A stretch of DNA of 64,000 bases from a bacterium (GTDB lineage Bacteria; Patescibacteriota; UBA1384; VFKW01). The translations under genes and the position numbers were made by a program. The notes beneath the pieces are model-generated. The model made no database searches. It was given only the letters and a program-made list of their open reading frames with translations, and had not been told where the DNA came from. Numbering within the stretch: position 1 is the first letter of the stretch; every line of letters begins with the position of its first letter. Below are positions 22,901 through 41,368 of this stretch, in pieces. The stretch lies in assembly GCA_030647355.1 (NCBI GenBank), contig JAUSIS010000006.1, positions 253,465 to 317,464 on the forward strand, given 5' to 3'.

Positions 22901-23461
22901 CCGGTCATCATCGGCTATTTCAACTAATTTTCCAGCTTGTCCCGAGCCGGTCGAAGGATCCACATAGCCATGTTTATAAAATTGCAAAAATATCCACTGT
23001 GTCCACTTATAATATTCTGGGTCGCTAGTATTTATCTCTCGATCCCAATCGAAAGAGTAGGCGAGTGTCTTCATTTGTTTTCTAAAAAAATCTGTATTTT
23101 CTTTTGTTACTAAAGCCGGTTTTTTACCTGTTTTAATAGCATAATTTTCTGTCGGCAACCCAAAAGCATCCCAACCAATCGGGAAAAGCACATTATAGCC
23201 CTGCATACGCTTCATACGGGTGTGCGCATCCGATGCTGTATAACCCATGCAATGACCAACATGCAGACCAGACCCGGAAGGGTAGGGGAATTCAATCAAA
23301 CTGTAGAATTTTGGTTTTTTGGCAAAATCTTCAGCGCTAGAAAGATTATTTTTCTCCCAAACTACTTGCCATTTTTTTTCTATATTCTTTGGGTCATATT
23401 TATTCATATCAAAATCCCACTTAGATACTAATATTGTACCTTTAAAATAACAGTTCTTCAA
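19934..23461 (-). CDS. leuS: Leucine--tRNA ligase with two inserted accessory domains: an alpha/beta serine hydrolase and a Nudix hydrolase
   Basis: HVGH, KMSKS (QKMSKSRGN), editing-domain TTRADTLFG and the Zn-binding WCPSC...CERC are all present. An extra ~170-aa block (about 22112-22615) carries IILHGFTGSP...LGHSLGAVV (G-x-S-x-G). An extra ~140-aa block (about 21257-21694) carries the Nudix box GGMEKDETPMQAVEREVFEETGY. Total 1175 aa against the usual ~820-880 aa. Confidence 0.9.
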   Translation of the reverse strand: MKNCYFKGTILVSKWDFDMNKYDPKNIEKKWQVVWEKNNLSSAEDFAKKPKFYSLIEFPYPSGSGLHVGHCMGYTASDAHTRMKRMQGYNVLFPIGWDAFGLPTENYAIKTGKKPALVTKENTDFFRKQMKTLAYSFDWDREINTSDPEYYKWTQWIFLQFYKHGYVDPSTGSGQAGKLVEIADDDRTTPRLAYQAEMPINWCPSCKIGLANEEVIAGRCERCESPTAKKMQKQWMLRITAYADRLINDLDKTDYLEKIKTQQINWIGKSKGTNIDFELKQNANFIILHGFTGSPKDNFFPWLRAELERRGYKVQAPELPETNNPKIDEQVDFVVDKIKIDENSVILGHSLGAVVAMKVVERLKHPIAKLILAAGFIEPTFKDHKRPFEKTFDWKFDFEKIKKNTGSTIYLRASNDYAVPFEQGDKISNLLNAKIVDFVANEEHICGTHEPVVFDACVDKVRVFTTRADTLFGCAYIVIAPESDYTSNLKSQISNLEEVEKYIENAGKKSDLERTELQKEKTGIRLEGVKAINPINNEEVDVWVADYVLSTYGTGAVMAVPAHDERDFEFAKKYNLLIKEVVIPFEGEEHKGAEFRKTVSAVVHRRSDDKYLIVKWKKFDWFAPSIGGMEKDETPMQAVEREVFEETGYKVKAVEELGGQIESHFYAENKQVWRARIDQPVLCELRDKTPREVSKEELELHEAVWMTANEALQKITHPYNKIGFERYTKKNYAYIGYGKLVNSGEFSGIYSKEAIEAITKKIKKDGNGDFAVNYKLRDWVFSRQHYWGEPIPIIYCEKCGIIPLNESDLPLELPDVKKYEPSNTGESPLAAVSEWVDIKCPRCSGPARRETDTMPNWAGSSWYYLAYIMLGKEKEKIKKQKNGTVNVFDEFKKELEYWLPVDLYNGGMEHTTLHLLYSRFWHKFLYDLKEVPTSEPYQKRIAHGIILGPDGQKMSKSRGNVIIPDDIVSTYGADTMRAYIMFIGPYDQESAWSVAGLQGVFRFLNRVWKNVGKVKEGIDDPKDLLVDLNKYIVSVTDDLENFRLNTYVAKLMEINNEIDSLETVSKDSFGIFLKLLSPAAPHLAEELWEKIGGSESILDQTWPKADAKYLILDYVKIAVQVNGKLRGVVEVGSKATQEEVLDIVRKNSVIANWIKGREIVKVIYRPEKVMSLVIK
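21976..22003. repeat. Heptanucleotide tandem repeat (GATTTGA)x4 inside the leuS coding sequence
   Basis: Perfect 4-copy tandem seen directly. Encodes ...NLKSQISNLEE on the minus strand. Confidence 0.8.
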
Positions 23462-24968: not shown

Positions 24969-25727
24969 TCAAGGCGTTATGAGTACTAGGTACTCGTCGG
25001 CCTTGGGCAACCAGTGCTTATACCATTCCTCAGATTGCCCTATGGGCTTATGTGCCTCAATTACCGTGCGGGCTCCGAACCTGTCCTTTCCTGGCTCAGG
25101 CAGGACACCCGGCCCAACCACGATGCCTCCTTGTTTCCACCTGCCAATGCAGTACGCCTCGCTACCGGCAAACGACTTTTTGCCAAATAGTTTTGCGCTT
25201 AGCACCAGCTCCTTGTCCGCGACGTATAGACCAAATTCTCCACCCCGGCTTATGCACTCGACCAGCTTTGACGGGTCGCTTTTGCAGAAAACATAGATAG
25301 CAACCGCGTGGCTAGTCGGAGTGGAAGTCGCGTAAGCAAAGTTGGACTTCTCCTCTGGGTGGGCGATCCAGAGGAACTGATTGGCTCGATTCTCCAGAGC
25401 TTCCGCTCTCGCATGGAGTTTTTCATATGCGAGGTAGGCGATTGCTTGCCTGCGGGTTTCACAGTGGCAACTCTCCATGGCATACTTGATTCCGATTTCC
25501 AACCAATGCTTTGTGATAGCCGACAGGATAGCTCTAAAGTCCTCTGGAAGCTCCCTTTCCGACTCGGGGAGATCTCGCCACAAAGGTGGCTTTGGCCCAC
25601 GGATAGGTTTCCTACCTACCCAAGGCGCTATTTGGTCATCTTCTCGACGAGTAACAGGACCGGATGCGTCAAAAGCCCTTTGGAGAGTGTCGAGGTCAAT
25701 TTTGTCCAATCTCGACAATACTCTCAC
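24969..25727 (-). CDS. Hypothetical protein in a GC-rich (about 57%) foreign segment
   Basis: 252-aa ORF with uniform codon usage unlike the host. Flanked by R2 and R3. No motif recognised. Confidence 0.45.
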   Translation of the reverse strand: MRVLSRLDKIDLDTLQRAFDASGPVTRREDDQIAPWVGRKPIRGPKPPLWRDLPESERELPEDFRAILSAITKHWLEIGIKYAMESCHCETRRQAIAYLAYEKLHARAEALENRANQFLWIAHPEEKSNFAYATSTPTSHAVAIYVFCKSDPSKLVECISRGGEFGLYVADKELVLSAKLFGKKSFAGSEAYCIGRWKQGGIVVGPGVLPEPGKDRFGARTVIEAHKPIGQSEEWYKHWLPKADEYLVLITP

Positions 25728-25850
25728 CTCCCTTCATAACAGATTTTCTCAGCCAAACTACCGGGTATATTATACATAAAATATTAAGTTTTAGCAATAC
25801 TATCAAACACCAAAGGAGAGTATGTTCCAAAAGAGTTCCAAATCCGCTCG

Positions 25851-25997: not shown

Positions 25998-26213
25998 TTA
26001 GGAGATGTCTAGTGATTTTATATTTAATGCCTTTAAAACACGCTGCAGTTTCTCATACGAAATGCTCTTCTCGCCCCGCTCGACTATCGCATAATAGTTA
26101 GCATTGATGCCCGCTTTCTCGGCCAACTCTGATTGGGTAAGACTAGCATTCTCCCTTGCGTCCTTCAGCCGTTTGCCAAGTCTTATAGAAACATTTTCAT
26201 CTTTGCTATTCAT
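25998..26213 (-). CDS. XRE-family helix-turn-helix transcriptional regulator
   Basis: IRLGKRLKDARENASLTQSELAEKAGINANYYAIVERGEKSISYEKLQRVLKAL is a classic HTH_XRE. Confidence 0.7.
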   Translation of the reverse strand: MNSKDENVSIRLGKRLKDARENASLTQSELAEKAGINANYYAIVERGEKSISYEKLQRVLKALNIKSLDIS

Positions 26214-26287
26214 ATAAGCATAATATAACAAATTTAGTCACAAATTTCCAGATACCTTACCTATATTAAATAACAACAAGGAGGAAT

Positions 26288-27016
26288 ATGCCAACACAAA
26301 CGCCATCGTTCAAAAACTATCTAAAGCGCCGACAAGCAATAATTGACACCGAAACCAAGCAACAAGAAGAACCGAAAGCTCTGGCACTATTCAACGAGAA
26401 GACTTTTTACCGCTCTTTCTTGAAAGATATGATTGAAGCTGAAAAAGAAGTTATTATTTACAGCCCGTTTATAAGTAAATTCAGATCGGACTTCTTCAGA
26501 GATACATTCAAAAAACTCAGGCGGAGAAACATAGATGTCTTTATCTTTACCCGCCCGCTTGATGAACATGAATACTTTATGAGATCGGAAATTAAGAGCG
26601 CTTTAAGTGATTATGAGGAGATGGGAGCATGTATCTTCTATCTCCCCGGGTCGATTCATGAAAAAGTGGCAATAATAGATAGGGAAATACTCTGGGAAGG
26701 GAGCTTAAATATCCTTTCGCAGAGAACCAGTCGTGAACTGATGAGAAGGACATCAGACGAAGAATCGGCAAAACAAGTTATGGCCCACTTGGGGCTAAAC
26801 AAGAATCTGGTTGAAGGATATAAAGACAAATATGAGAGAATGTATAGGAGTCTGGTCGCCAACGCAAAAGACGATCGCATGAAAAAAGCCCGGCTATTTG
26901 TTACCGGCGTGCTCCTCCCAATTCTCACTTGGTGGCTATTTTTCAACTTTAAGGTTATGATAGTAGCGCTGAAAGGTGTTAAATTAATAATAAGCTTTAT
27001 AAGATCATATCATTAG
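26288..27016 (+). CDS. Phospholipase D-family (HKD) nuclease-like protein with a C-terminal TM helix
   Basis: HKD motif HEKVAIIDREILWEGSLN (H-x-K-x4-D). RBS AAGGAGG. Hydrophobic C-terminus. Confidence 0.55.
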   Translation: MPTQTPSFKNYLKRRQAIIDTETKQQEEPKALALFNEKTFYRSFLKDMIEAEKEVIIYSPFISKFRSDFFRDTFKKLRRRNIDVFIFTRPLDEHEYFMRSEIKSALSDYEEMGACIFYLPGSIHEKVAIIDREILWEGSLNILSQRTSRELMRRTSDEESAKQVMAHLGLNKNLVEGYKDKYERMYRSLVANAKDDRMKKARLFVTGVLLPILTWWLFFNFKVMIVALKGVKLIISFIRSYH

Positions 27017-27024: not shown

Positions 27025-27387
27025 ATGAATAAAGATAAATTTATACCCCAAATTCCTGAACCGACAGAGGAGGAAATCAAGCAAGCCATTTCGAAACTTA
27101 AGAAAAAGTATGACATTGCAATTCCCCAATCTGACGCCAAAGAGTATGTTAAGCTAACCAACGAGTTAGGATGGTGGTTAACTACGGAAAAAGCATATCT
27201 CTCAGATGAATGCATAACTGAAGATATAGCTAAAGAAGTTCAAGTGTTTGTTAAAAAGACACAAGGGAAAGATATCTCGTTAAAAGAAGCTCATATAGAA
27301 GCTGAGAAATCGTTAATATATGCGGTACCCCATGAGAAAGATCGTATTGCCAACGAAATTAGAGCTTTGATTGCTAAATATAAATAG
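27025..27387 (+). CDS. Hypothetical protein
   Basis: 120-aa ORF with RBS AGGAG. No recognised domain. Confidence 0.35.
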   Translation: MNKDKFIPQIPEPTEEEIKQAISKLKKKYDIAIPQSDAKEYVKLTNELGWWLTTEKAYLSDECITEDIAKEVQVFVKKTQGKDISLKEAHIEAEKSLIYAVPHEKDRIANEIRALIAKYK

Positions 27388-27388: not shown

Positions 27389-27802
27389 TCAACTTAAAGC
27401 AGATTTTATTTTGTCTACAAATTCTTGAATATTACGCCCTTTTTGTTTTTCGATATCTTTTTGCCAAAATCTCAAAACCTTCCATCCTTCTTCGCGTAAT
27501 ATGTTGTTTACTTTTTGATCTCTTTTGATATTTTGCATAATTTTTTCACACCAAAACATAGAATATTTTTCTTTTTCACTTTCGAAATTTCTGCCGTGCC
27601 ACCAATCGCCGTCTACGAAAACGGCAATCTTTTTCTTAAAAAATATGATGTCTGGCTTCCCGTGCACCCGCTTGTCATGAATTCTGTATCTTAGTCCCTT
27701 TGCAAAAGAAGCCCGTCTTAAAATAAGCTCGGCCCTGGTATTTTTTGAGCGAATCTTGGACATAATCTCGCTTCGCTTTTGTTTTGAAAATATATCTGTC
27801 AT
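27389..27802 (-). CDS. vsr: Very-short-patch-repair endonuclease (T:G mismatch endonuclease)
   Basis: Vsr signature SEIMSKIRSKNTRAE...GLRYRIH...GKPDIIFFKKKIAVFVDGDWWHG. The longer track ORF to 28264 runs antisense into the methyltransferase gene. Confidence 0.8.
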   Translation of the reverse strand: MTDIFSKQKRSEIMSKIRSKNTRAELILRRASFAKGLRYRIHDKRVHGKPDIIFFKKKIAVFVDGDWWHGRNFESEKEKYSMFWCEKIMQNIKRDQKVNNILREEGWKVLRFWQKDIEKQKGRNIQEFVDKIKSALS

Positions 27803-27865: not shown

Positions 27866-28750
27866 ATGAAAAAAAGCAAAGAAAACAAGTACAAGTTTAT
27901 CGATCTCTTCGCTGGAATAGGCGGATTTCATTTGGCTTTTCACAATCTTGGGGCCGAATGCGTTTTTGTTTCGGAATGGGATAGCCCTGCCAGAAAAACA
28001 TATCAAACAAATTTTGAAAAGATCTCCCCGAAGGTATTTAAAAACGGAAATTTCGCAGGAGACATTATGGCTATCGATCCAAAAGATATGCCGGATTTTG
28101 ATATCCTCACAGGAGGATTTCCCTGCCAACCTTTCAGTCAGGCGGGAAAAAAGAAAGGTTTCGAAGAAGCGAGAGGGACCATGTTCTTCAAGATTGCCGA
28201 GATCATCAAGGCAAAACAGCCGAAAGCTTTTTTTATCGAAAACGTCAGACATTTTATGAAACATAATAACGGGGAAACTTTTAAGACGGTTAAAAGAATT
28301 ATTGAGAAAGATCTAGGATATTCCTTTTTCCCTCAAATTATTAAGGCATCGGATTACGGACTGCCTACTCACCGACCCAGACTTTACATGGTAGGTTTCA
28401 AAGATAAAAGTATAAAATTCGATTTTCCCGAGACTAAACCGCTTTCTTTAACGATGTCGGATATTTTCGGCGGTGAATGCAATAAAAAGATCGGTTATAC
28501 TCTAAGGGTGGGAGGGAGACATTCCGGGCTTGCCGACAGAAGAAATTGGGATACTTATCTGGTAGACGGGAAAGTCAGAAGAATTTCGATTGAAGAAGGA
28601 AGAAAGATTATGGGGTTCCCTCAAAATTTTCTTTTCCCTGTATCTGAAACCCAGGCGATGAAACAGCTCGGTAACAGCGTTGCCGTAACTGCAATTCAAG
28701 CAACTGCGGAGAAAATTCTTGATGCATTAAAAGAAAGTGAGAAAAAATGA
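27866..28750 (+). CDS. DNA (cytosine-5)-methyltransferase (small, short target-recognition domain)
   Basis: Motifs I FAGIGGF, IV GGFPCQPFS, VI FIENVRHF, VIII QIIKASDYGLPTHRPR, X GNSVAV. Confidence 0.85.
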   Translation: MKKSKENKYKFIDLFAGIGGFHLAFHNLGAECVFVSEWDSPARKTYQTNFEKISPKVFKNGNFAGDIMAIDPKDMPDFDILTGGFPCQPFSQAGKKKGFEEARGTMFFKIAEIIKAKQPKAFFIENVRHFMKHNNGETFKTVKRIIEKDLGYSFFPQIIKASDYGLPTHRPRLYMVGFKDKSIKFDFPETKPLSLTMSDIFGGECNKKIGYTLRVGGRHSGLADRRNWDTYLVDGKVRRISIEEGRKIMGFPQNFLFPVSETQAMKQLGNSVAVTAIQATAEKILDALKESEKK

Positions 28751-29835
28751 GTCAACCGAAGATACATAAAGTAAACAAGGGGGAATGGAGCGAGTTTTAT
28801 ACTCTGCTTAAACTTTTAGCCGAACAGAGACTCTATGCGGCCGATGAAAACCTGGAAAAGATGCAGGAGATATTCTATCCCGTCCTGAAGGTTATTGAGG
28901 CCAAAGGAACAGATAAGGAAACTCATTATGAACTAAACGAAAAAGATGACGATATAAAAGTATTTTTGGCGAGCAAAGATTCATTTTTTACAGTTTCCAA
29001 AGAATCGCTAAAAAGTAAAATTAAAGAGGTATTCCTTGCTATCAAGAATTCAAATGCGACCTTTGCGATTCCCGTAGCCAGCAAAATACTCGACGAACTA
29101 AAAAGAGATCATGTAAAGACCATTTCAAGCCGAAAATCGGATATAGTTTTGGTTATACATGACATGAAAACTGGAACCGATCCCGAAGTAGGTTTCAGCA
29201 TAAAGTCCAGACTGGGAGGCGCTTCGACAATACTTAATTCTTCGGGTGCAACCAACTTTACTTATAAAGTGGAAGGATTCACGGGAAACATAGATGAGAT
29301 TAATTCGATAGTCAGTAGCTCAAAAGTCAGAGAGAGAATCAAACTCATCGAAGAAAAAGGCGGAGAACTTAAATACCATAGAATGGACAGTCCTATTTTT
29401 GAGTCTAATGTAAGAAAGATAGATAGCAATCTGCCAGAGATACTCGCCGAAGTACTTAAAATTTACTTTGCGGGCGAAGCTTCAACTATGCCAGAGATAT
29501 GTGAACTAATAAAAGCCCCAGGATTAAGTTTTACAGCCGACAACAGCTTCTTTGAATATAAAAGTAAGGAGTTTCTATTAAATATTGCTCTAGGCATGAT
29601 GCCCAACACCCTTTGGGACGGCCATCTCGAAGCTCACGGAGGATATATAATAGTACGAGAGGACGGAGAGATTGTCTGCTACCATATTTATAACCTTGAT
29701 CGATTCAGGGGATATCTTTTCGACAATACTAAACTCGACACCCCCAGCACTACAAAGCATGGTTTCGGCAAACTCTACAAAGATAACGGCGAATTATTCT
29801 TCAAGTTAAATCTTCAAATAAGATTTATTAAATAG
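28747..29835 (+). CDS. Putative type II restriction endonuclease partner of the methyltransferase (HpaII-like; tentative)
   Basis: 362 aa, translationally coupled (ATGA overlap) to the C5-methyltransferase, with a divergently transcribed vsr. The vsr-methyltransferase-REase arrangement and the ~360-aa size resemble the HpaII system. No catalytic motif was confirmed by eye. Confidence 0.4.
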   Translation: MSQPKIHKVNKGEWSEFYTLLKLLAEQRLYAADENLEKMQEIFYPVLKVIEAKGTDKETHYELNEKDDDIKVFLASKDSFFTVSKESLKSKIKEVFLAIKNSNATFAIPVASKILDELKRDHVKTISSRKSDIVLVIHDMKTGTDPEVGFSIKSRLGGASTILNSSGATNFTYKVEGFTGNIDEINSIVSSSKVRERIKLIEEKGGELKYHRMDSPIFESNVRKIDSNLPEILAEVLKIYFAGEASTMPEICELIKAPGLSFTADNSFFEYKSKEFLLNIALGMMPNTLWDGHLEAHGGYIIVREDGEIVCYHIYNLDRFRGYLFDNTKLDTPSTTKHGFGKLYKDNGELFFKLNLQIRFIK

Positions 29836-30440: not shown

Positions 30441-33257
30441 ATGATAGACAAAAATACAAACATGGACAAAGGCGCACACTTCTACAAATGCGATTTTCAA
30501 GTACATACACCACGGGACACCAATTGGAATGGTGATGCCGCTGTTTCTGATATAGAGAGAAAGGCATATGCCGAGGAGCTGATACAGGCTTGTCGAACAA
30601 AAGGACTAGATGCGATTGCGATTACCGATCATCATGATTTTGCGTTCTTTCCATTTATTAAAAAGTCTGCTCAAGATGAGTTGGACGATTCGGGTAATCT
30701 CGTTACTAAAGACAGGCAGATCGTTGTGTTTCCAGGTATTGAGCTTACATTGACTGCCCCAGCTTGTCAGGTAATACTACTTTTGGATGCGAATTTTCCA
30801 GAGAACTTGCTACAAAGTGTTCTTACGGCACTCTCTATCTCTCCAGCTTCGCCTACTGATGAAAAGCACGCAAAAATTGAAAGAGTTCCACAGAACGTTA
30901 TTAGCGACCTCTCCGATCTCTACCAGAAACTTAGTAGTCACGATCATTTAAAAGGCAGGTTTATAGTAATACCGAATGTCAGTGAAACTGGTCATGGGAC
31001 AATGTTGCGAACGGGCTTTGGCAATTTTTATAAGACAATGCCTTGTGTGGGCGGATACACCGACGGCCCAGTTTCTAAATTCGGCACTGGCAACCTTTCG
31101 ATTATACAGGGGAAAAATCGAGATTATGGTTTCAAGGCAATCGGTGTTTTCCAAACATCTGATAATCGAAAACGTAATCACGATGACCTCGGTAAATATA
31201 CCACATGGATAAAATGGTCTGAACCGACCGCGGAGGCGTTGAGGCAGGCCTGCCTAGCCAAAGAGTCGAGATTATCCCAGGACGAGCCTCTTCTACCGAA
31301 TATTTGGATCATGTCCATTAGCGTTTCCGCATCGAAGTTTCTGGGTAGAATCGAACTCGATCTCAGCCAACAATACAACGCAATAATTGGCGGCCGCGGG
31401 ACTGGTAAATCTACTATACTTGAGTACTTACGATGGGGACTTTGCGACCAACCATCGGAAGATATCGATTTTGATAATGTTCAAAAAAAACGCAAAACTT
31501 TAATTGATAATACACTACAAAAATTTGATGGAGAAGTACACGTTACCTTTCTGCTCAATGGTGTGAAGCATATTGTTAAACGGAACTCAAAAAAGCAGGA
31601 AATTCTCCTGAAAATCGGGGATTCGGATTTCGCGCAAACCACAGAACAGGAGATCAGGAATTTACTCCCGATCCAAGCTTATAGTCAAAAACAACTTAGC
31701 AGTGTAGGTGTACGAATTGAGGAATTAAGACGCTTTGTTGAGCTTCCTATAAAACAAGACCTTGACCAAACGCGATCAGAGATTAGGGATACTGAATCAA
31801 AATTGAGGATTGCTTACGGGAATCTCGTTCGCAAAAGAGAAATTGAAACCGAAGTAAGTAAATACAATATAGAAGCCTCTTCTCTAGTAGAGCAGCTTAA
31901 AGGTCTGCGCGATGGTCTCAAGGGTCTTTCGAAAGACGAACAGGCAATTATCAACCGAAAAATTAAATATGACAATGAAGAGTCTATTATCGGTAATTTC
32001 CAGAATACGTTTTCCAATGCCAAAACACTTATAGAAACCTTGAAGTCTGTAATTGATGTAGACCCCCCTAAACATGATAATGATAGCGTCGAACTGGAAA
32101 ACAAAACACTTATTGATACAATTCGCGATCAATTTTCCACACGCTTTGTTGATATCAATGTAAAAGTAACCGCACTCGATAATATCTTTGACGAGGCTTC
32201 GCTTGATAGTCTTACGACTGAAATTGAAAAATGGACGAAGTTAAAAACGGAATTTGACAAAAAATACGAAGCAGTCAAGGCAACGGCAAAAGCCAATCAA
32301 CAACAACTTGCTCAAATTCAGCAATTGGAAAAAAGAATAGCCGAATTAAAGAAGCTGCAAATTGATAAACGCAACTCACTTGAAACCCTAGCTGAATCAG
32401 AAAAAATCCACAAGGAATTAAGGCAAAAATGGGATATAGCGCATACCGATAAAATTACCGCTCTCGGAAAGCAATGCATGCAGTTTACCTCCTTGTCAAA
32501 TGGGCTTATAAAAGCAGAGATTACAAATAGTCTAGATATAGGGTCCCTCATGCAAAGATTTAAAATTGCTTTTAACGGTCTAAATATCAAGGAAGAAAAA
32601 ATTGAGAAAATTTGCCAATGCCTTGTCACGGCAACTGATCCCCTGGCGAAATGGAATGACATCTTAACTGAGCTCGAGAAGCTTGCCTGGCATTCTGCAG
32701 ATGGAACAACGACCATGCCAGACACTCCGACACTTGGACAGTGTGGATTTATTGACTCTGAGCGAGCACGGATTGTGGCTGGCTTTGATTCGGAGAAGTG
32801 GATTAATTTAGCTGTGACAGAATTGGAGTTCAACCCAAAATTCTCTTACTGTACAAACCAAGACAAGAATGAGTATATAGAATTTTCTGATGCTTCAGCT
32901 GGACAACAAGCTACTGCTCTTCTGACAGTGCTTCTTAACCAAAATGGAGCACCACTCATAATTGATCAGCCAGAAGATGATGTAGACAGCAAGATGATCA
33001 CGGATATTGTTAAGCAAATTTGGCTTGCGAAAAGTAACCGTCAGCTTATATTTGCAAGTCATAATGCTAACTTCGTTGTTAACGGGGATGCGGAGCTTGT
33101 TGTTTGTTGCGACTATGTAAAAGCTGCTGATCAAACAAACGGACATATTAAGGCAGAAGGGGCTATCGACAATAAAGCCATTAAAGAGGAAATAACATTA
33201 GTCACCGAGGGCGGTCCGCAGGCGTTTAAACTCAGAAAAGATAAGTACGGGTTCTAA
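30441..33257 (+). CDS. PHP-family phosphoesterase fused to an SMC/Rad50-like ABC ATPase with a long coiled-coil insert
   Basis: PHP motifs DFQVHTPRD, AIAITDHHD, FPGIELT. Walker A IIGGRGTGKST. About 400 aa of heptad-rich coiled coil. Signature SDASAGQQA, Walker B LIIDQPEDDVD, H-loop FASHNAN. Confidence 0.7.
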   Translation: MIDKNTNMDKGAHFYKCDFQVHTPRDTNWNGDAAVSDIERKAYAEELIQACRTKGLDAIAITDHHDFAFFPFIKKSAQDELDDSGNLVTKDRQIVVFPGIELTLTAPACQVILLLDANFPENLLQSVLTALSISPASPTDEKHAKIERVPQNVISDLSDLYQKLSSHDHLKGRFIVIPNVSETGHGTMLRTGFGNFYKTMPCVGGYTDGPVSKFGTGNLSIIQGKNRDYGFKAIGVFQTSDNRKRNHDDLGKYTTWIKWSEPTAEALRQACLAKESRLSQDEPLLPNIWIMSISVSASKFLGRIELDLSQQYNAIIGGRGTGKSTILEYLRWGLCDQPSEDIDFDNVQKKRKTLIDNTLQKFDGEVHVTFLLNGVKHIVKRNSKKQEILLKIGDSDFAQTTEQEIRNLLPIQAYSQKQLSSVGVRIEELRRFVELPIKQDLDQTRSEIRDTESKLRIAYGNLVRKREIETEVSKYNIEASSLVEQLKGLRDGLKGLSKDEQAIINRKIKYDNEESIIGNFQNTFSNAKTLIETLKSVIDVDPPKHDNDSVELENKTLIDTIRDQFSTRFVDINVKVTALDNIFDEASLDSLTTEIEKWTKLKTEFDKKYEAVKATAKANQQQLAQIQQLEKRIAELKKLQIDKRNSLETLAESEKIHKELRQKWDIAHTDKITALGKQCMQFTSLSNGLIKAEITNSLDIGSLMQRFKIAFNGLNIKEEKIEKICQCLVTATDPLAKWNDILTELEKLAWHSADGTTTMPDTPTLGQCGFIDSERARIVAGFDSEKWINLAVTELEFNPKFSYCTNQDKNEYIEFSDASAGQQATALLTVLLNQNGAPLIIDQPEDDVDSKMITDIVKQIWLAKSNRQLIFASHNANFVVNGDAELVVCCDYVKAADQTNGHIKAEGAIDNKAIKEEITLVTEGGPQAFKLRKDKYGF

Positions 33258-33276: not shown

Positions 33277-33594
33277 ATGAAAAATCTACCACAACTAAAC
33301 CGTGAACAACTGAATGAATGGCGAGAAGAAATATTGGGACACCGAAGCAAAAAGTTTCCAGAAAGTTTTCTATTTGATCAACTTTTTGATGAGAGATCTC
33401 CATTGGCTAAAGACAAATTACTATCTAAAAGAATTGAAATCCTGGTTAAAAAATACCCAAAGGCAGATACAAGAAAAAGCTTGAAAGAATTTGTCCCCAC
33501 AGCATTGGAGTTTTTAAAAGAGAATGGTTTTATTGATGACGAAACTTACTCCAAAGAAAGCTTGAATTGCCAAATTTTTATTGAAAATTCTTAG
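33277..33594 (+). CDS. Hypothetical small helical protein downstream of the PHP-ABC ATPase
   Basis: 105-aa ORF 20 nt after the ATPase stop. Confidence 0.3.
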   Translation: MKNLPQLNREQLNEWREEILGHRSKKFPESFLFDQLFDERSPLAKDKLLSKRIEILVKKYPKADTRKSLKEFVPTALEFLKENGFIDDETYSKESLNCQIFIENS

Positions 33595-33998
33595 TTCCTA
33601 TTGGAAAACCATTTTATTATTTTTGACCAATACCCCCCTTTGTTGTTGCCATAGTACCTATTTTTGTTTATTCGTTCTCTTTCTCGGCCTTCTCTAATTT
33701 CTTCATCTGTCCATTTTTCAGCCCAAATTACTTGGTTTCTCTTTATCCAGTAGTGGGATTGGCATTTATAGCTCCAGTTGCCAATCGAGGGTGAGAGCGA
33801 TATTGTTTTCCCATCATAAATTAACTTCCAATCCGTTGGAGTAAGCGGTGTTACTACTTCTTGTTGACAACCGCAGAAACATTTATGTATAGCCGTACCG
33901 TATTTTATTGAAATATAGATAACATTATCATCTAGGTCTCTTGGAATCTGCTCCACAAATTTATGCAATATAGTCATCATTGAATAATTTCCCGTCAT
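33591..33998 (-). CDS. Cys/His-rich small protein, last gene of the Ubl/E2-E1 operon (possible Zn-binding module)
   Basis: HKCFCGCQQ ... YKCQSHYW cysteine/histidine cluster. Overlaps the E2-E1 stop. Start taken at MTGNYS; the track ORF extends to 34049. Confidence 0.35.
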   Translation of the reverse strand: MTGNYSMMTILHKFVEQIPRDLDDNVIYISIKYGTAIHKCFCGCQQEVVTPLTPTDWKLIYDGKTISLSPSIGNWSYKCQSHYWIKRNQVIWAEKWTDEEIREGRERERINKNRYYGNNKGGYWSKIIKWFSNRN

Positions 33999-35142
33999 TA
34001 ATGGAATAAATTGTATTAAATTCTTTAGAAAGGTCTTGATAAAAACCAAAGAGCTTTTTCCATTTTATCACTGCTAACGTTGCGCTTAAAGCATTGAGGT
34101 CAGCTACCTGAATATTGGTTACATAGGCATCAGCGGCAGTTTTCTCTGCTACTGAGATTCTCTTTTCGATGTGATCTTTTTTCTCTTTTGTTATTGTGGT
34201 AACCCTTACATGGCCAAGAAGAGAATCGTCAGCTGTCAGCAACCCAATTCCGGCATCAATAAAGGGAATCTCTTTGGCAATTAAATGATCAATGATTTGC
34301 TTTTTAGCGACACCTTTGTCTATTGCTATAAACACGATATCCATTCCGGATAATTCTTCGAGTTTTTCGGCTGTCACATTATAAGGATGAGAATGAATAT
34401 TTTTGTGCATATTGGAGTAGATGCTCTGAAAATAATTCGTCTTCTTATTTGCTTCAGTCAATTTCTCTAATACTGGAGCACCGGGAGACCTATAGGCGTT
34501 ATGATTTAGGAGAACATCCTGGTCAAATAAATGAATTTCTTGCACGACAGTTTTGGCAATTAAATCTAGTATGTATGAGCCAGTTCCGCCCAACCCTACT
34601 ATTGCAATTTTCTGACCCTCCAATTTTTGCGTTATCGTGCTTATCTGTCCGCGGCTAATATTTGTATCCGGATAGTTAAAAACCGATTCGATACTCGGAG
34701 TGTTAATATCCTTGAATGGCTTTTCGGTAACTGTTCTGTCTAGCGCTTTAGCTTGTGCAGATATTATAGTTGCATAGTTAGACATCTTATGAAAGTAATC
34801 CTTGTATCCTTCCGTAGGCTTGTTTGAAAACGAGTGATTTACAATTATCCCACCCATTTGTATATCTTGGCTCCCGCTATGAATACCACTAATAAGGCTT
34901 CCGTCTTTATTACAAGGCAACTCTCCTTCCCAATAAGCAACATGTTGGGTTATCGGACTATTGGTAATATTACCGGCGATTGATGTTAAATCAGAGACCA
35001 AAGTACCATATCGAATCTGTTTGTCTGATGTAACATAAGGTATCTCATAAAGCAGAAGGCAATCATTGACGATTGCCACTGCATAACCTTCATCTTTTAA
35101 CCGCTTTAAATCCGGATTATGATTTATCAGTTCTTGTGGCAT
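33961..35142 (-). CDS. E2-like/E1-like (ThiF/MoeB adenylyltransferase) fusion protein, Cap2/BubCD-like
   Basis: C-terminal Rossmann motif QKIAIVGLGGTGSYILDLIAKTVVQEIHLFDQD is ThiF/E1-type. The N-terminal ~150 aa carry a candidate catalytic Cys (HVAYWEGELPCNKDG) in an E2/UBC-like position. Confidence 0.6.
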   Translation of the reverse strand: MPQELINHNPDLKRLKDEGYAVAIVNDCLLLYEIPYVTSDKQIRYGTLVSDLTSIAGNITNSPITQHVAYWEGELPCNKDGSLISGIHSGSQDIQMGGIIVNHSFSNKPTEGYKDYFHKMSNYATIISAQAKALDRTVTEKPFKDINTPSIESVFNYPDTNISRGQISTITQKLEGQKIAIVGLGGTGSYILDLIAKTVVQEIHLFDQDVLLNHNAYRSPGAPVLEKLTEANKKTNYFQSIYSNMHKNIHSHPYNVTAEKLEELSGMDIVFIAIDKGVAKKQIIDHLIAKEIPFIDAGIGLLTADDSLLGHVRVTTITKEKKDHIEKRISVAEKTAADAYVTNIQVADLNALSATLAVIKWKKLFGFYQDLSKEFNTIYSINDGKLFNDDYIA

Positions 35143-35392
35143 TGAAAATCATATCCTTTTTAACCTTAACCTCATCACCTTTTACCATTGTTCCCTCATC
35201 CGGATCGTTACCTTTGCTGTAAGAAACAGTGTAAACTATGTTCTCGTTTTCTTCATAGTTACCGAAAGCTATCTCGATTACCCGCTGAAATGTTATCATC
35301 TTGCCGGTAACTTGTTCCTCACGACCATTTACATAAATTGTGGTTGTTTTGTCGTGTCCTTGTCCTTCGTGTTTTTCTTCTTGGTTAGCCAT
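35117..35392 (-). CDS. Ubiquitin-like beta-grasp protein (multiubiquitin-family-like)
   Basis: 91 aa, TIYVNGREEQVTGKMITFQRVIEIAFG...VYTVSYSKG...GTMVKGDEVKVKKDMIFNATRTDKS pattern. Overlaps the E2-E1 start by 26 nt. Confidence 0.45.
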   Translation of the reverse strand: MANQEEKHEGQGHDKTTTIYVNGREEQVTGKMITFQRVIEIAFGNYEENENIVYTVSYSKGNDPDEGTMVKGDEVKVKKDMIFNATRTDKS

Positions 35393-35417: not shown

Positions 35418-36035
35418 TTACAGAATTGGCGGAAGCACTTCGACCACTACTCCCTGAATTCTAAAATCTCTTGTTAAGACGATCGGTTTGTGTTCCTTGT
35501 TTGTTGATCGGGGCAAAAGAATATAAGCGTTCGGTGTTATAAATAACTCTTTTATAGTTGCTTCATCATCAATTAATGCTACAACCCTTTCGCCACTACG
35601 GGCCGTTTCCTGTTGTCGGATTAGAACAAAATCTCCGTCATTTATTCCACTCGCGTTCATCGAGTCGCCTTGTGCTTTCAGCATAAAGTATTTGTAGGGC
35701 GGATGGGCAATCTTGCTAGAAACAGGTATTAAAGCTTCAATATTCTCGACTGCCAAAACTGGGGCACCGCAAGCCACGCTTCCGACCAAAGGAACATTAA
35801 CTGTTACTGTCCGATCTTTCTCTTCGAAACTATCAGTTACTTGAAGCGATCCATTGGCTTTCTTCTTTAAAAATCCTTTTTTAATCAGTCCCTCAATAAT
35901 TAGTGCAGCGGATCTGGGGGAACCATATCCCAATGATTTCATTAGTTGACGCACCGAAGGAGAAGTGCCGTTTTGCAAGATAGCATTTCTAATTTCTTTT
36001 AGAGCTAAAATTTCTTTTGGGTTTAATATGTTCAT
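35418..36035 (-). CDS. lexA: LexA-like repressor (N-terminal wHTH plus S24 peptidase)
   Basis: N-terminal LexA-type DNA-binding domain. GDSM active-site Ser and a downstream Lys (ATIKELF). First gene of the four-gene minus-strand operon. Confidence 0.8.
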   Translation of the reverse strand: MNILNPKEILALKEIRNAILQNGTSPSVRQLMKSLGYGSPRSAALIIEGLIKKGFLKKKANGSLQVTDSFEEKDRTVTVNVPLVGSVACGAPVLAVENIEALIPVSSKIAHPPYKYFMLKAQGDSMNASGINDGDFVLIRQQETARSGERVVALIDDEATIKELFITPNAYILLPRSTNKEHKPIVLTRDFRIQGVVVEVLPPIL

Positions 36036-36963: not shown

Positions 36964-37758
36964 TTGGGAACAAAAACGAAATGCGCGCAAAAGTGGGAGA
37001 GCATGTTTGCTTTCCTTCGCCAAGACGACATGGAGAAAACATACTTGATGTTGCTAGGTCTGTCCAACAGCGTTAGTGACATTCAGACCCTTCATGCAAA
37101 GCTTCCGCCGAACGCTCAACTCTTGAGAGAAGATCGTAAGGAGCTAGAGAATCTGTGGAAAGAGCACCTTGCTCCGACTGGGACGTCGAAACCTGCCGGA
37201 ATAAGCGGTAGGGAGGGGGGCGACTGGCTGTTGCTCTCGCTCTTACCGAAAGGAAAGAAGATCAACGGGTTGCTAGACTACTATGAGAGGAAGCTTCGTG
37301 AGAGCAGGAACTGCTTAAACGCAAGCGACACCTATCTTCCCAGCATCGAGCAAGTATGCGACATTGCTATCGGGTGTGGTGAGCACCTCGCCAGCCACGG
37401 AAGGAATTTCCTTGCCCAGATGTTCGATGAGGAGTTTTCCTTCGGTGCTGCTTACTCTGGCTCTTTCGAAGGCAAACGAGACAAAGTGAGAATATGGTTC
37501 TATACCGAGTCTTCTCGCCTTACAGAGATCCTTGTTCACAAGCTAAGAAATCTGCCTGCTTACAAGCTGTATCAGTATGCCGGCGGGTTAGCATTCGCTT
37601 ACGAGATTCCCGCCCATGAAGAGAGTGGCTTGAGCTGGAGAAACATGGAGTGGGGAAACGGCGTTCATGTCTATAAGGCTCATGAAGATTTCACAGGTAG
37701 CGTCTGTGGGTATCTTCAGCAAATCGGAGTACCGATTGAGTCACTAACCGTGGCCTAA
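36964..37758 (+). CDS. Hypothetical protein in a GC-rich segment
   Basis: 264-aa ORF. Several overlapping ORFs at 36616-37082 make the 5' boundary uncertain. Confidence 0.3.
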   Translation: MGTKTKCAQKWESMFAFLRQDDMEKTYLMLLGLSNSVSDIQTLHAKLPPNAQLLREDRKELENLWKEHLAPTGTSKPAGISGREGGDWLLLSLLPKGKKINGLLDYYERKLRESRNCLNASDTYLPSIEQVCDIAIGCGEHLASHGRNFLAQMFDEEFSFGAAYSGSFEGKRDKVRIWFYTESSRLTEILVHKLRNLPAYKLYQYAGGLAFAYEIPAHEESGLSWRNMEWGNGVHVYKAHEDFTGSVCGYLQQIGVPIESLTVA

Positions 37759-37780
37759 ACGGGCCTGATAACTGCTATCT

Positions 37781-37818
37781 AGGGGTGTGTCCTAACGGGC
37801 CACCCCTTTTATTTTTTA
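37781..37818 (+). terminator. Rho-independent terminator
   Basis: AGGGGTG...CACCCCT stem followed by TTTTATTTTTT. Confidence 0.5.
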
Positions 37819-37835
37819 CAAGTGCTTTTTAATTT

Positions 37836-38624
37836 TTATTCCTCCTCTAAAACTTTCTGCAATGTCTCGCCATTCAGTCCCTTGCTGTCAACGAGTTCTT
37901 TGGTTGTAAGATAAAAAGACATTTCAGGCTCTCCCGAAAGTTTCTTGCGAATGTAATAGAACAAATGTCCTTTTGTCCTTGTGTTCGGGCAGATGAATAT
38001 AATTTCAGGGAATGGCTTGTCTGTGTTATCTTGCCAATCCCCGGAAGCATAATATTTAAAATATTGCGCTACCCGCCTGCGGTGCGCCGCCGGCGGAATA
38101 TCGTCTAAGATTTCTAGAAAGTAACGGATAATCTGTCCTTTCTTCTCCTCAATGGCGAAATGAGCATCGGGAGCAGGTGAAATAAAATGTTCCGTCCCGT
38201 GCAAATCGGTCTTGGTATAGAAATGGAGTGTTGATTTATTCTTTTCCGTTATGGCAAGTAAGGAAATATAGATATCGGCTAAAGATAAGCAATGTTCTCT
38301 AAACTTGGAAGAGTATTTCGCCTCTCTCCAGACCCGATCTAATAATGCCTGTTTAATATTGCCCTCCTTTAAACTCTTCAAATATTTTCTCCCCTTAGAA
38401 TCAAGCGAATAGACAGACGGAGACGATGCGATTGTTTTGTCGTAGTATTGTTTAGTGTAGTTTTGATTGGTTAGTTCGTTAAGCCAGGATAAGATGCGGG
38501 AGCGGTATTTGTGGTTGAGTAAGTTTTGTATGTGTAGGCGGTTTAGAAAGCGGAAGCGATAGAGAAGAATAAGAATGTCGGTTTGTCGTTTAGAAAGATT
38601 TTGTTGTGGTGATAATATTTTCAT
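37836..38624 (-). CDS. Replication-relaxation (Replic_Relax) family protein
   Basis: N-terminal wHTH LSKRQTDILILLYRFRFLNRLHIQNLL, typical of Replic_Relax proteins of conjugative elements. Confidence 0.55.
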   Translation of the reverse strand: MKILSPQQNLSKRQTDILILLYRFRFLNRLHIQNLLNHKYRSRILSWLNELTNQNYTKQYYDKTIASSPSVYSLDSKGRKYLKSLKEGNIKQALLDRVWREAKYSSKFREHCLSLADIYISLLAITEKNKSTLHFYTKTDLHGTEHFISPAPDAHFAIEEKKGQIIRYFLEILDDIPPAAHRRRVAQYFKYYASGDWQDNTDKPFPEIIFICPNTRTKGHLFYYIRKKLSGEPEMSFYLTTKELVDSKGLNGETLQKVLEEE

Positions 38625-38737: not shown

Positions 38738-41368
38738 TTACCTGTAGGAATTCAAGCCGGCAGGGGCGGATTCGTTCGCTTTCTTTGGGCCGGTTTTGGC
38801 GGAGGGTTCGGATTGTACACCCGGCATTTCTTTTTTGACCGGCTTTACATATTCGACGGCGTAATTTTTTCTCGATGACTCAATTAAACTTTTCACTTTT
38901 GCCGGATTCTTTGGCGTTGTAATCGGTATTGTTTCTCCGGACAGGGGTTCCTGCGGTTCGACTGCTGCCATTTTCATATAGAATCGGTAGCGGGGCAGAT
39001 TGCCGATGTCGCCCTGTACCACCGCGGGGGCGAATTGGGACAGCATCAGATCTTCGTCAACCGGACTGGCCGTTCTAAAGCAAATGACCGTACCGGTATT
39101 GGCCAAAACAACATTGGTAACATTTTTGTTATCCTGCTGGGCTGTCGATTGTTCGGCAACGGTAATTCGGAGGCCGAACTTTCGTCCGCCGGATAAAAAC
39201 TTGGTGAACGATTTATTGGCAAAGTTTTGGAATTCATCGACGAATAGATAAAACGGCTGGCGCTTGGCGGTTTCCATTCTTGCTCTTCTGACGGCGGCTT
39301 GTTGGATTTTAGCCAGAACGGTCGCCCCCAGAAGCTGGGAAGTGTCTTCGCCCAGTTTGCCTTCCGCCAGATTGCAGATAAGGATTTTTCGGCTGTCCAA
39401 TATATCGTCAAAACTGATAGTGGATTTAGATTGCTCCAGTATCCGTCTGGCGGTAGCGGAGAAAAGAAATCGTCCTACCTTAGCGGTAATTCCGCCGATC
39501 ATTTTAACGTGCTGGTAATCGCCGGCTTTGCCGAACTCGTTTTTCCAGAAATTAATCAAATCCTCGTTTTTCAGATCCCTTATTGCCTGCCTTCGAACAT
39601 TTTGGTCGTTTAATAGATGATAGACGGTAAAGATCGTTCGATCGGGAACAACAAAAGCGGTGTGTATCGTGTTTCTAAGTATATACTCTATTCTATGAGC
39701 GTTCGCGTCTTCGTCCTTGAAAAAGACTCTTCTAAATATTGAGATGACGCTTTCACAGACCAGCTCTTTTTCCAACTCAAGATCGTCTTCTTCCAAGCTT
39801 TCGTCCAGTTCCAAAAGATTTATTCCGACAGGGAATTTAATATCGCGGGGGTTAAAATATATGAGATCATTTGTCCGCTCTTTCGGTACCGTATCAAGCA
39901 ATCCTTCCGCCAAGTCCCCATGCGGATCAATGACTGCCAGACCCCGCCCCTTTTTAATATCGTCGGATGCCATATGATAAATGATGGTTGATTTACCAGA
40001 ACCGGTTTGTCCGATTAGGTACAAATGGCGGGATCTGTCTTCATCAGTTAAGCCGATATCGGTTACAACATTTCCGTAAGTGCTTTTACCGAACACCACA
40101 TCAAGGTCTTGGTTATTCTTTAATACCAGCGGCGCAGGCAAATCTCGGCTCTTTACTCTTACAAGGTCTTCCGTATGGGTGTTGGCGGTATATGGGAAGT
40201 GATACAAAGCGCTGACTTCCGAAGTCGCCAGCACCAAAGGCGATCCGCTTAAACGCAGACGGAACATCAGCCACTTGAGCCGTTCAACTATTTTTACAGG
40301 ATTTCTCCATTTGGGAATAAGCGATTGCCCCGAAGAGTGCAGAAAGCTGGCAAATGATGAGCGCAAACCTCTTTCCCGCTCCAATATTTGATCCTCTGCC
40401 ATTACAAGGAGTGCCCGAACCGTTCCAGCAAATAGCGGTTGGTGTAGTTTGGATTTCATAAGATCGCCCATCTCTATATCCAATGTCGTAGCAGTTCTTT
40501 CAATACTTCCGCTATGAGGCAGAACATCGGCTTTCTGCCCGCTTGCAAATTCGGCCAGAAATAGAAGAGGCATCATAACAATTCGTACGGCCGATTCTAT
40601 CAGTCCGGCAATCAAGCGAAGCGTACTTTGCAGTTTAGTGTCGTTAATTCCTAAGGAGAATTTGTTTTGAGCGATAAGAGATTTAATTCTTGAGATTTCC
40701 TGCCTTTTGCCCATTTGGCGAAAGCCGTTTAGCGGCCTTAAAATTACCTGCAAAGCCATAAGCTCGCCTTTTTTTAACTGCGTCATGTTTCCGGTTAAGT
40801 AAGCCAGCGGGTCGTGCTTTTCCAGATGGGATTGCTCGTTTAGAGGCAGAGCAAAATGTTTGGCATGCTTGAATTCCAATATCCTCAAAACATTCGGCTT
40901 TGCGGGCAGGTAGTCGGCGATCTCTTTGACTTTAATACTCGGTATATATGAACGGAGATTCTTTTCGGCTACTTTGGCGATGTTTTCAGGGATACGCAGT
41001 ATATACCTAATCCCTGTTTCTTTAGCGGAAACTATTTCCAGAGAGCAAAACGGCTGTCTGAACAGCAACCTATCTAGCCAAGTGCGCTGGCTAATAAGAT
41101 TAGCGATTAAAGAGAACAATTGTGTTGTCGAAGCCGATGAGATTTCGGTCGTATGGGGAGGAGTGATTTCCAAAAAGACGAATTTGTCCTTTATGTCCCG
41201 ATAGGTTCGAACGATAGATAAAATAAGCGAAACAAAAAGCCAGAGGATTAAAAGAAAAAAGATATATACTGCTACGAGCTTAAGGTTGGAGTATGAAAAA
41301 GTGTGAACAAAAAAATTAGTAAGCGTATCTAAATCGATGGAGGATAATTTATTAGTTGCAGATTGCAT
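38738..41368 (-). CDS. Conjugative coupling-protein-like P-loop ATPase (TraD/VirD4/TraG superfamily) with N-terminal TM helices
   Basis: Two N-terminal TM segments. Walker A LIGQTGSGKST. Walker B FYLFVDEFQNF. Confidence 0.55.
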   Translation of the reverse strand: MQSATNKLSSIDLDTLTNFFVHTFSYSNLKLVAVYIFFLLILWLFVSLILSIVRTYRDIKDKFVFLEITPPHTTEISSASTTQLFSLIANLISQRTWLDRLLFRQPFCSLEIVSAKETGIRYILRIPENIAKVAEKNLRSYIPSIKVKEIADYLPAKPNVLRILEFKHAKHFALPLNEQSHLEKHDPLAYLTGNMTQLKKGELMALQVILRPLNGFRQMGKRQEISRIKSLIAQNKFSLGINDTKLQSTLRLIAGLIESAVRIVMMPLLFLAEFASGQKADVLPHSGSIERTATTLDIEMGDLMKSKLHQPLFAGTVRALLVMAEDQILERERGLRSSFASFLHSSGQSLIPKWRNPVKIVERLKWLMFRLRLSGSPLVLATSEVSALYHFPYTANTHTEDLVRVKSRDLPAPLVLKNNQDLDVVFGKSTYGNVVTDIGLTDEDRSRHLYLIGQTGSGKSTIIYHMASDDIKKGRGLAVIDPHGDLAEGLLDTVPKERTNDLIYFNPRDIKFPVGINLLELDESLEEDDLELEKELVCESVISIFRRVFFKDEDANAHRIEYILRNTIHTAFVVPDRTIFTVYHLLNDQNVRRQAIRDLKNEDLINFWKNEFGKAGDYQHVKMIGGITAKVGRFLFSATARRILEQSKSTISFDDILDSRKILICNLAEGKLGEDTSQLLGATVLAKIQQAAVRRARMETAKRQPFYLFVDEFQNFANKSFTKFLSGGRKFGLRITVAEQSTAQQDNKNVTNVVLANTGTVICFRTASPVDEDLMLSQFAPAVVQGDIGNLPRYRFYMKMAAVEPQEPLSGETIPITTPKNPAKVKSLIESSRKNYAVEYVKPVKKEMPGVQSEPSAKTGPKKANESAPAGLNSYR

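Follow-up and report, generated by a model that had tools for sequence, protein, structure and literature searches.

What is a protein that joins a PHP phosphoesterase domain to an SMC/Rad50-like ATP-binding cassette (ABC) ATPase doing beside a restriction-modification (RM) module, and does it represent an undescribed defence effector, as an earlier note on this DNA proposed? The gene in question lies near the middle of a 64,000-nucleotide stretch of bacterial contig JAUSIS010000006.1, hereafter the window. Profile matches place its product in the TrlF family, which contains the anti-phage protein Ppl, and we refer to it as window TrlF. We conclude that window TrlF is probably a stand-alone, single-polypeptide immunity nuclease that travels as cargo of an integrative conjugative element (ICE). 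Coordinates of all annotated features are collected in Table 1.

A hidden Markov model search, suggested in the earlier note as a check, returned an end-to-end match to NCBIfam model NF045780 ("TrlF family AAA-like ATPase"), with residues 10-937 aligned to profile positions 1-944 of 944 (514.7 bits, cutoff 350, E 8e-154). The Ppl model of PADLOC (PDLC02208) also matched (E 6.7e-43), and NCBIfam gave a match to the Spaf_1101 family that was weaker than that to NF045780, while Pfam recognized the protein in pieces (AAA_21, SMC_N, AAA_23 and a sub-threshold PHP). The Ppl model NF042955 aligned in 3 stretches totaling 187.5 bits, below its cutoff of 1000. BLASTP alignment with a Ppl annotated by the Prokaryotic Genome Annotation Pipeline (PGAP) was collinear, displaying 24% identity over amino acids (aa) 11-599 and 39% over 809-932. 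As a calibration of these values, reference Ppl and TrlF proteins were scored on both the TrlF (cutoff 350) and the Ppl (cutoff 1000) models. The PGAP-annotated Ppl of an Acinetobacter pittii plasmid scored 501 and 1078 bits, respectively, and the TrlF of Vibrio anguillarum 594 and 640 bits; TrlF proteins of an Agrobacterium plasmid (495 and 156 bits) and a Sphingobium plasmid (502 and 164 bits) resembled the window protein (515 and 187 bits). These scores indicate that the TrlF model is an umbrella for PHP-ABC ATPase fusions of which Ppl is one sub-branch, and by this measure the window protein belongs to the umbrella family and falls outside Ppl proper. Homologs with 64-72% identity from Patescibacteria and Minisyncoccota metagenome-assembled genomes (MAGs) already bear the name "TrlF family AAA-like ATPase" in their deposits, while the window protein itself was deposited as "AAA family ATPase". 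The effector is consequently not undescribed. Its family has a name, and a PHP domain and an ABC ATPase in one polypeptide constitute the named system Ppl, contrary to the view of the earlier note that no named system has a PHP effector.

Ppl has been described as a single-gene defence that combines a PHP domain with an ATPase (PMC11482910), and two articles state that it works alone when cloned (PMC12904381, PMC11482910). A passage of a preprint (bioRxiv 10.1101/2024.01.29.577857) lists it as an ABC-ATPase single-gene defence and attributes it to Gao et al. 2020. According to Xu et al. (Mol Cell 2026;86:180), as cited in passages of PMC12904381 and PMC13434339, Ppl is a 3'-5' single-stranded DNA exonuclease that is inhibited by nucleoside triphosphates (NTPs) bound at the PHP and NTPase domains, and is activated when a phage depletes NTPs and its homing endonucleases also leave 3'-OH overhangs. 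Like Ppl, window TrlF is a single polypeptide of the ~890-940 aa class with the order PHP, ABC N-lobe, coiled-coil insert, ABC C-lobe; the two proteins share their ABC motifs, and each is encoded by a stand-alone gene on mobile elements and in defence islands. Ppl differs in sharing only 24% identity with window TrlF over the N-terminal 600 aa, and in its PHP ligands, as discussed below. Kinship with Ppl and the defence-island context support a defence role as the best reading, in line with the earlier note. By homology with Ppl, window TrlF is most likely an NTP-gated, DNA-end-directed nuclease. If it follows Ppl, then NTPs bound by the ABC head and the PHP domain would hold the enzyme inactive as long as the cell is healthy, infection would drain the nucleotide pool while free DNA 3'-OH ends appear, and the PHP domain would degrade DNA from those ends, halting replication of the phage or plasmid.

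The gene is a single unbroken 938-codon open reading frame (ORF), as judged from the ORF listing and translation and as the earlier note had reported, with GGAG 6 nt 5' of its ATG; a promoter and terminator scan around it yielded nothing above the shuffled-background level. The fusion of PHP domain and coiled-coil ABC ATPase in one chain is real, and the motifs that had been quoted are all there: DFQVHTPRD (18-26), AITDHHD (60-66), GIELT (99-103), GGRGTGKST (317-325), SAGQQA (819-824), LIIDQPED (839-846) and ASHN (872-875). All residue counts given here use window numbering and come from aligned full-length sequences of 94 diverse relatives. In this alignment R319, K323, Q416, S819, G821, D842, E845 and H874 were each invariant (94/94), and all of the NTP-binding and hydrolysis motifs of window TrlF are intact. 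The GC content of the gene is 41.0% rather than the ~35% claimed for it; since this is close to the values for the window (40.5%), the island (24-49.3 kb, 42.0%) and the flanks (39-40%), composition is uninformative as to origin.

The ABC N-lobe gave partial Pfam matches to SMC_N, AAA_23 and ABC_tran, and its profile match in the PDB was an SMC head; the C-lobe, the part in which identity with Ppl reaches 39%, matched AAA_21 with 39 bits. The earlier note had the head split by a ~400-aa coiled coil. The Q-loop and the signature motif are indeed separated by an insert of roughly that length, but its coiled coil spans only ~260 aa (426-685, with helices at 426-492, 498-538, 555-581, 585-649 and 653-685 in the AlphaFold secondary structure), the remainder being a helical region that reaches ~700-790 in the model. 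No CxxC hook was visible in the sequence at the coiled-coil apex. The full-length AlphaFold model had a predicted local distance difference test score of 72.8 and was mediocre across the PHP region, which a PHP-only run with a more diverse alignment mended. Foldseek comparison with the PDB revealed that the head and coiled coil resemble SMC, Rad50, MukB, JetC, LmuB and AriA heads (E 8e-10 to 1e-5), a likeness that extends to RecN. In the PDB, neither sequence nor profile searches turned up a Ppl or TrlF structure; they returned only weak SMC-head matches.

The PHP domain had been called complete, a description that only partly stands. Its (beta/alpha)7-barrel PHP fold is supported by the domain model and fold searches, the best structural match being EndoQ, a PHP-fold DNA endonuclease, and the PHP domain of E. 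coli Pol III alpha being among the other matches. The expected PHP ligands D18, H22, D26, D63, H64, E101 and D241 are invariant or almost so among relatives. However, three histidines of the canonical ligand set (DxHxH ... H ... E ... H ... DxH) are replaced by Q20, N179 and R243, and the match to Pfam PHP (PF02811) remains under the gathering score of 26.4, with 22.4 bits for the full protein and 24.2 bits (E 5e-5) for the isolated domain. In the BLASTP alignment, DFHCH of Ppl corresponds to DFQVH of window TrlF, IPAHVD to IPNVSE, and SDAH to SDNR; Ppl thus keeps the canonical histidines (DFHCH, PAH, SDAH), whereas window TrlF has the three substitutions plus R25-D26 and a DHHD motif. Both Ppl and Vibrio TrlF carry histidine at positions 20, 179 and 243, and alanine at position 25. 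Among the 94 relatives, position 20 is Gln in 88 and His in 3, position 179 is Asn in 59 and His in 34, position 243 is Arg in 89 and His in 2, and position 25 is Arg in 88. The ligand set of window TrlF is likewise altered relative to EndoQ, RNase AM and the PHP exonucleases of PolX, PolC and DnaE1, which show a sequence identity of only 12-19% and lack an ABC ATPase.

As judged from this alignment, the branch bearing Q20, N179 and R243 (the Q/N/R branch) is the dominant branch of the TrlF family. The three replaced histidines, which we take from PHP enzymes such as YcdX to feed all three metal sites, together with the extra Arg25, argue that the metal centre of the Q/N/R branch is probably remodelled, likely with fewer metals, and not a classical three-metal centre; its substrate or regulation may differ from that of Ppl. 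The same substitutions might instead mean that in this branch the PHP domain has no nuclease function and serves as a nucleotide- or phosphate-binding sensor or as a scaffold in a protein that signals or acts otherwise. Such a role would fit the prevalence of Q20, R243, R25 and, to a lesser degree, N179 at positions where Ppl has H, H, A and H, the sub-threshold Pfam score, and the presence among the structural matches of the Pol III alpha PHP domain, which is metal-free. In contrast, the near invariance of the seven other ligands is the pattern of a working, albeit remodelled, metal site, the top structural match is a DNA endonuclease, and no separate effector gene is conserved at homolog loci. 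We therefore regard a sensor or scaffold function as unlikely.

That the head and coiled coil structurally resemble Rad50, SMC and RecN, and that PGAP assigned to one homolog an electronic Gene Ontology term for double-strand break repair, could also point to housekeeping DNA repair by an SbcCD/Mre11-Rad50-like end-processing complex merged into one chain. SbcCD and Mre11-Rad50 do, like window TrlF, combine a coiled-coil ABC ATPase with a metal-dependent nuclease, although action on DNA ends is a property of SbcCD that is ascribed to window TrlF by homology with Ppl. They are housekeeping complexes with a separate calcineurin-like nuclease, whereas window TrlF has a fused PHP domain, a short coiled coil without a zinc hook, and a location in a mobile defence island; its NCBIfam Rad50 match was 15.9 bits. 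Moreover, the family is spread patchily over plasmids, ICEs and defence islands, identities of 60-79% across phyla imply horizontal transfer, no repair neighbourhood is conserved, and Ppl, the nearest relative to have been characterised, acts against phages. The earlier note had named homology to an ordinary SbcC/RecN/RecF-like protein with a housekeeping neighbourhood as grounds for abandoning its reading; our searches pointed to neither, and we consider a repair function very unlikely.

The ABC-3C or Lamassu-like architecture proposed in the earlier note was rejected. PADLOC gave no match to LmuA, LmuB or LmuC, the only SMC-type match was a marginal one to JetC (E 0.006), and no LmuA/LmuC-type neighbours were found in the window or at homolog loci. 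Gabija GajA/OLD (TOPRIM), PARIS AriA-AriB, Septu PtuA-PtuB (HNH), Lamassu LmuB and Wadjet JetC share with window TrlF the use of an ABC/SMC-like NTPase as the sensor or regulator of a nuclease, and in passages of reviews the triggers of such ABC-ATPase defences are given as NTP depletion, DNA ends or DNA structures (PMC12904381, bioRxiv 10.1101/2024.01.29.577857). Their profile and fold similarity to window TrlF is nevertheless weak and confined to the ATPase head. Whereas these systems have a separate or different nuclease, the effector of window TrlF is a PHP domain fused in cis, without LmuA/LmuC, JetABD, AriB or PtuB.

The name TrlF derives from the Photorhabdus temperature-restriction locus trlR-trlF-trlG (PMC7554251), and apart from unrelated acronyms that paper was the only literature found on the name. 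Window TrlF has both the family name and the model in common with Photorhabdus TrlF, which would be consistent with growth arrest of the kind implied there, in which the protein acts with TrlG (AlbA_2 + HATPase_c_4) and TrlR under stress. Yet the Photorhabdus protein is encoded in a trlR-trlF-trlG operon, while the window lacks TrlG and TrlR: the ~5 kb to each side of the gene hold neither an AlbA_2/HATPase_c_4 gene nor a TrlR-like regulator, and the top 25 neighbour families at ~85 homolog loci include no AlbA_2/HATPase_c_4 family. In Photorhabdus, suppressor mutations were all in trlG, and a role for trlF was not demonstrated (PMC7554251). The TrlF of Vibrio anguillarum, despite sharing the family model and architecture, is Ppl-like both in score and in its canonical histidine ligands, and in this respect is unlike window TrlF. 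Taken together, these findings make a temperature-restriction function extremely unlikely, the least probable of the alternatives considered.

Whether window TrlF needs partners was addressed through the neighbourhoods of its homologs, covering six homologs with precomputed Pfam annotation, four annotated plasmid loci and 80 metagenome loci examined by an alignment-based scan. No neighbour family was conserved in a bulk Pfam scan of ~85 loci, the most frequent accounting for 8 of 110 upstream and 4 of 109 downstream ORFs. Instead, neighbours included BREX (BrxA/B/C/E/L), CBASS (CD-NTase + Cap15) and Type I, IIG, IIL and III RM systems; Fic-RadC, HNH, PD-(D/E)XK, SF1 helicase-RNase H, KAP NTPase, HD-CE, caspase-helicase, AIPR, TIR and STAND NTPase genes; and integrases, serine recombinases and ArdC. 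The varied defence and mobility neighbours and the lack of a conserved partner support the view of an autonomous defence gene, and on gene content window TrlF would act as a single gene without an obligate partner.

Two small ORFs flank the gene, and the earlier note had suggested both as partners. They exist, and the Rx4H motif noted in the upstream one, orf188, was borne out as R105-N106-x3-H110, which is invariant within its small family. If orf188 (HEPN-like) and the downstream orf105 were subunits of a three-gene system with the PHP-ABC ATPase, the tight spacing (25 nt and 19 nt) and the conserved RNxxxH motif of orf188 would be accounted for. However, by tblastn both were confined to the contig identical to the window and absent from the other homolog loci searched, so that conservation of the three-gene neighbourhood was not observed, and no family was conserved among the 219 neighbour ORFs. 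Homologs of orf188 adjoin unrelated genes and never TrlF, in surroundings that resemble other defence islands (Type III RM + kinase, Type I RM, PIN); orf105, with 2 homologs anywhere, has no obvious Shine-Dalgarno sequence upstream of its start. A three-gene system is thus very improbable. No Pfam, PADLOC or NCBIfam match was obtained for orf188, for which a precomputed search gave a faint match to Pfam PF27329 'Rv1289'; its distribution suggests an independent small defence-island gene. We also observed recurrent arrangements elsewhere in the family. Fic - RadC - TrlF was repeated on two different metagenomic or MAG contigs (L013:4397-8790 and L026:2640-7027), with the 355-aa and 167-aa genes directly upstream at a spacing of <=7 nt. 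In a ~46%-identity branch (L054:6382-9828, L057:7846-11340), TrlF is followed, with an overlap or a 23-nt gap, by a ~1150-aa protein comprising an RNase_H_2-like domain and an SF1 helicase (AAA_11/AAA_12/AAA_30), which could be a two-gene variant specific to that sub-branch.

The RM module reported next to the gene is present as Vsr, Dcm and HpaII upstream, and Dcm, HpaII, orf188 and TrlF run co-oriented with gaps of 13 nt (HpaII-orf188) and 25 nt (orf188-TrlF). RM families were the commonest upstream neighbours of homologs and were about 3-4 times rarer downstream. Among 77 non-redundant loci with upstream sequence, 17 had, no more than 40 nt away, an upstream gene of >=100 aa in the same orientation, and two more were found in precomputed gene calls (L010, L013), for a total of ~19. 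At least 10 of these ~19 tightly linked genes encode RM subunits, at spacings of -8 to +32 nt. They comprise HsdS overlapping the TrlF start by 4-8 nt (L021, L089 and L093, with L043 added by clustering), a fused M+S enzyme at 6 nt (L036), an Eco57I/TaqI_C Type IIG enzyme at 3 nt (L003), Type III Res at 8 nt (L010, L017) or 10 nt (L063), and an annotated restriction endonuclease at 32 nt (L016). Placement of TrlF at the 3' end of RM operons is recurrent and sometimes translationally coupled, involving Type I, IIG and III systems, and Type IIP in the window, where the Dcm-HpaII-orf188-TrlF run fits the upstream RM pattern.

Since autonomous defence genes embedded in RM and BREX loci are a general phenomenon, as stated in a passage of bioRxiv 10.1101/2024.01.29.577857, RM adjacency alone is no proof of functional coupling. 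The RM-terminal placement is notable because Ppl is reported, in a passage of PMC12904381, to require endonuclease-made 3'-OH DNA ends. On this arrangement of genes, functional coupling of window TrlF with the upstream RM module is possible. In its strongest form, the protein would be no autonomous system but an accessory nuclease tied to Dcm-HpaII, or to whichever RM operon a TrlF gene terminates, that processes restriction ends or that the RM complex restrains, much as EcoprrI masks PrrC. The co-oriented run in the window, the share of RM subunits among linked upstream genes, their upstream bias and the reported need of Ppl for 3'-OH ends are all compatible with this. On the other hand, ~85% of loci have no RM gene directly upstream, the diversity of RM types (I, IIP, IIG, III) speaks against partnership with a specific protein, RM and BREX loci are known to harbour embedded autonomous defence genes in general, and cloned Ppl works alone; we hold an RM-coupled accessory role to be doubtful. 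As gene order frequently puts TrlF at the 3' end of RM operons, it might instead act as a second-stage nuclease on ends produced by restriction. It is also conceivable, though we consider it improbable, that the Q/N/R branch is functionally distinct from Ppl, with fewer metals, two invariant arginines that would bind phosphate or the transition state, and another substrate or trigger, and that RM-terminal placement reflects a two-stage defence in which restriction makes ends and the nuclease destroys them.

The family is very large and mobile. An exhaustive phmmer search of 1.84 billion representatives of 50%-identity clusters returned 769 matches at E<=1e-30, a number that rose to 3980 at E<=1e-10 and to 6243 at E<=1e-3. 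Window TrlF shares 60-79% identity with proteins of Patescibacteria, Acidobacteria, Alphaproteobacteria (Rhizomicrobium) and others, which argues for horizontal transfer across phyla. In plasmids, 790 records matched at least partly by tblastn, 575 of the 790 being conjugative plasmids; 17 records cover >=80% of the protein, many matches were already annotated TrlF, and no near-identical DNA was found among plasmids. Phage records yielded C-lobe-like fragments only, and hence no evidence for a phage-borne copy. One close homolog (75% identity, L068:5004-7803) is divided between two ORFs (5004-6605 and 6580-7803), representing either a frameshifted pseudogene or an assembly error.

Within the window, the gene content places window TrlF in the cargo region of an ICE that carries a VirD4-like coupling protein, a VirB4-like ATPase and a large serine recombinase whose gene overlaps a tRNA; a search for att-type direct repeats of the tRNA-Ala end found none. 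Left of the island are housekeeping genes, up to ~24.1 kb (PheT, LeuS and a Nudix hydrolase). The gene does sit in a cluster of defence genes, as the earlier note had it, surrounded by the PLD nuclease, Vsr-Dcm-HpaII and a Bub-type operon. The latter, a bacterial ubiquitination-like operon that extends from BubE to the LexA-like repressor, lies downstream and is convergent with the window TrlF gene. To the left of the islet, the helix-turn-helix (HTH) regulator, the PLD-like nuclease and the unannotated 120-aa ORF may be another small defence module.

Table 1. Features of the window and subdivisions of the window TrlF gene (positions in nt of the window).
Feature	Position	Strand	Evidence or remarks
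HTH regulator	25998-26231	-	
PLD-like (PLDc_2) nuclease	26288-27016	+	weak PADLOC MkoC/DrmC matches
Unannotated 120-aa ORF	27025-27387		
Vsr	27389-27802	-	Pfam Vsr 3e-27
Dcm C5-methyltransferase	27866-28750	+	Pfam DNA_methylase 8e-78
HpaII-family restriction endonuclease	28747-29835	+	Pfam RE_HpaII 6e-113
orf188, 188 aa	29849-30415	+	RNxxxH (HEPN-like); 25 homologs; context, not partner
TrlF-family (Ppl-related) PHP-ABC ATPase gene, 938 aa	30441-33257	+	NF045780, PADLOC Ppl model, BLASTP vs Ppl
PHP-fold domain, aa ~10-285	30468-31295	+	non-canonical ligands: D18-x-Q20-x-H22-x-x-R25-D26, D63-H64-H65-D66, E101, N179, D241-x-R243
ABC head N-lobe, aa ~288-425	31302-31715	+	Walker A GGRGTGKST 31389-31415, Q-loop Q416
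Insert in ABC head, aa ~426-795	31716-32825	+	antiparallel coiled coil 426-685, then helical region
ABC head C-lobe, aa ~796-938	32826-33254	+	SAGQQ 32895-32909, Walker B LIIDQPED 32955-32978, H-loop H874 33060-33062
orf105, 105 aa	33277-33594	+	near-orphan; 2 homologs in 5.8 billion proteins; context, not partner
BubE/DUF6527	33591-33980	-	
DUF6791 + ThiF E1-like protein	33961-35142	-	NCBIfam PRK06153-type, 507 bits
Multi_ubiq	35117-35392	-	PF14452
LexA-like repressor	35418-36035	-	
VirD4-like coupling protein	38738-41368	-	
VirB4-like ATPase, CD1110 family	45025-46812		
Large serine recombinase	47717-49291		3' end overlaps tRNA-Ala(ggc) on opposite strand, 49227-49302

Additional observations relate to the host and to base composition. 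The match of the leucyl-tRNA synthetase (19934-23461, minus strand, 1175 aa) to the bacterial LeuS model is broken into four stretches, and the weak matches to foreign domains (Nudix-like, lipoyl-like) between them indicate large insertions; PheT (13445-15445) is short at 666 aa. These features and the closest TrlF relatives fit a Patescibacteria/candidate phyla radiation-like host. Relative to the ~40% GC of the window, GC content is raised (48%) at 24969-25779 and 37001-38000; the former patch holds overlapping ORFs at 24969-25727 (minus) and 25308-25739 (plus), neither with an NCBIfam match.

Several points weigh against an immunity nuclease that works as Ppl does. Window TrlF fails the Ppl-specific model (187 vs 1000 bits), meaning that the Ppl mechanism is transferred across ~24% identity, and the loss of three metal-ligand histidines could alter or abolish exonuclease activity. 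The searchable literature shows no experimentally tested member of the Q/N/R branch and, to our knowledge, no phage-host system exists for a Patescibacteria-like MAG host. Finally, the sole experimental phenotype linked to the name TrlF, temperature restriction, mapped to trlG and not to trlF (PMC7554251).

The PHP-ABC ATPase fusion is not a new kind of defence system, and what we report is a correct annotation rather than a discovery: an unnamed "AAA family ATPase" deposit is now placed in the TrlF/Ppl family. It also reveals that, in an uncultured and probably Patescibacteria-like host, a conjugative element carries a compact defence islet made up of a PLD nuclease, an HpaII RM system, a HEPN-like ORF, TrlF and an E1-like/multi-ubiquitin (Bub-type) operon. 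For specialists the interest is comparative, in that most of a very large family differs from its one characterised member, Ppl, at three metal-ligand positions, and a sizeable minority of its loci are joined to RM operons. Beyond routine annotation, only two features would perhaps repay experiment, namely the ligand set of the Q/N/R branch and the placement at the end of RM operons. If a distinct chemistry or a hand-off from RM systems were true, it would extend the Ppl mechanism to hundreds of sequence clusters and would provide a further example of first-line restriction cooperating with a second-line nuclease.

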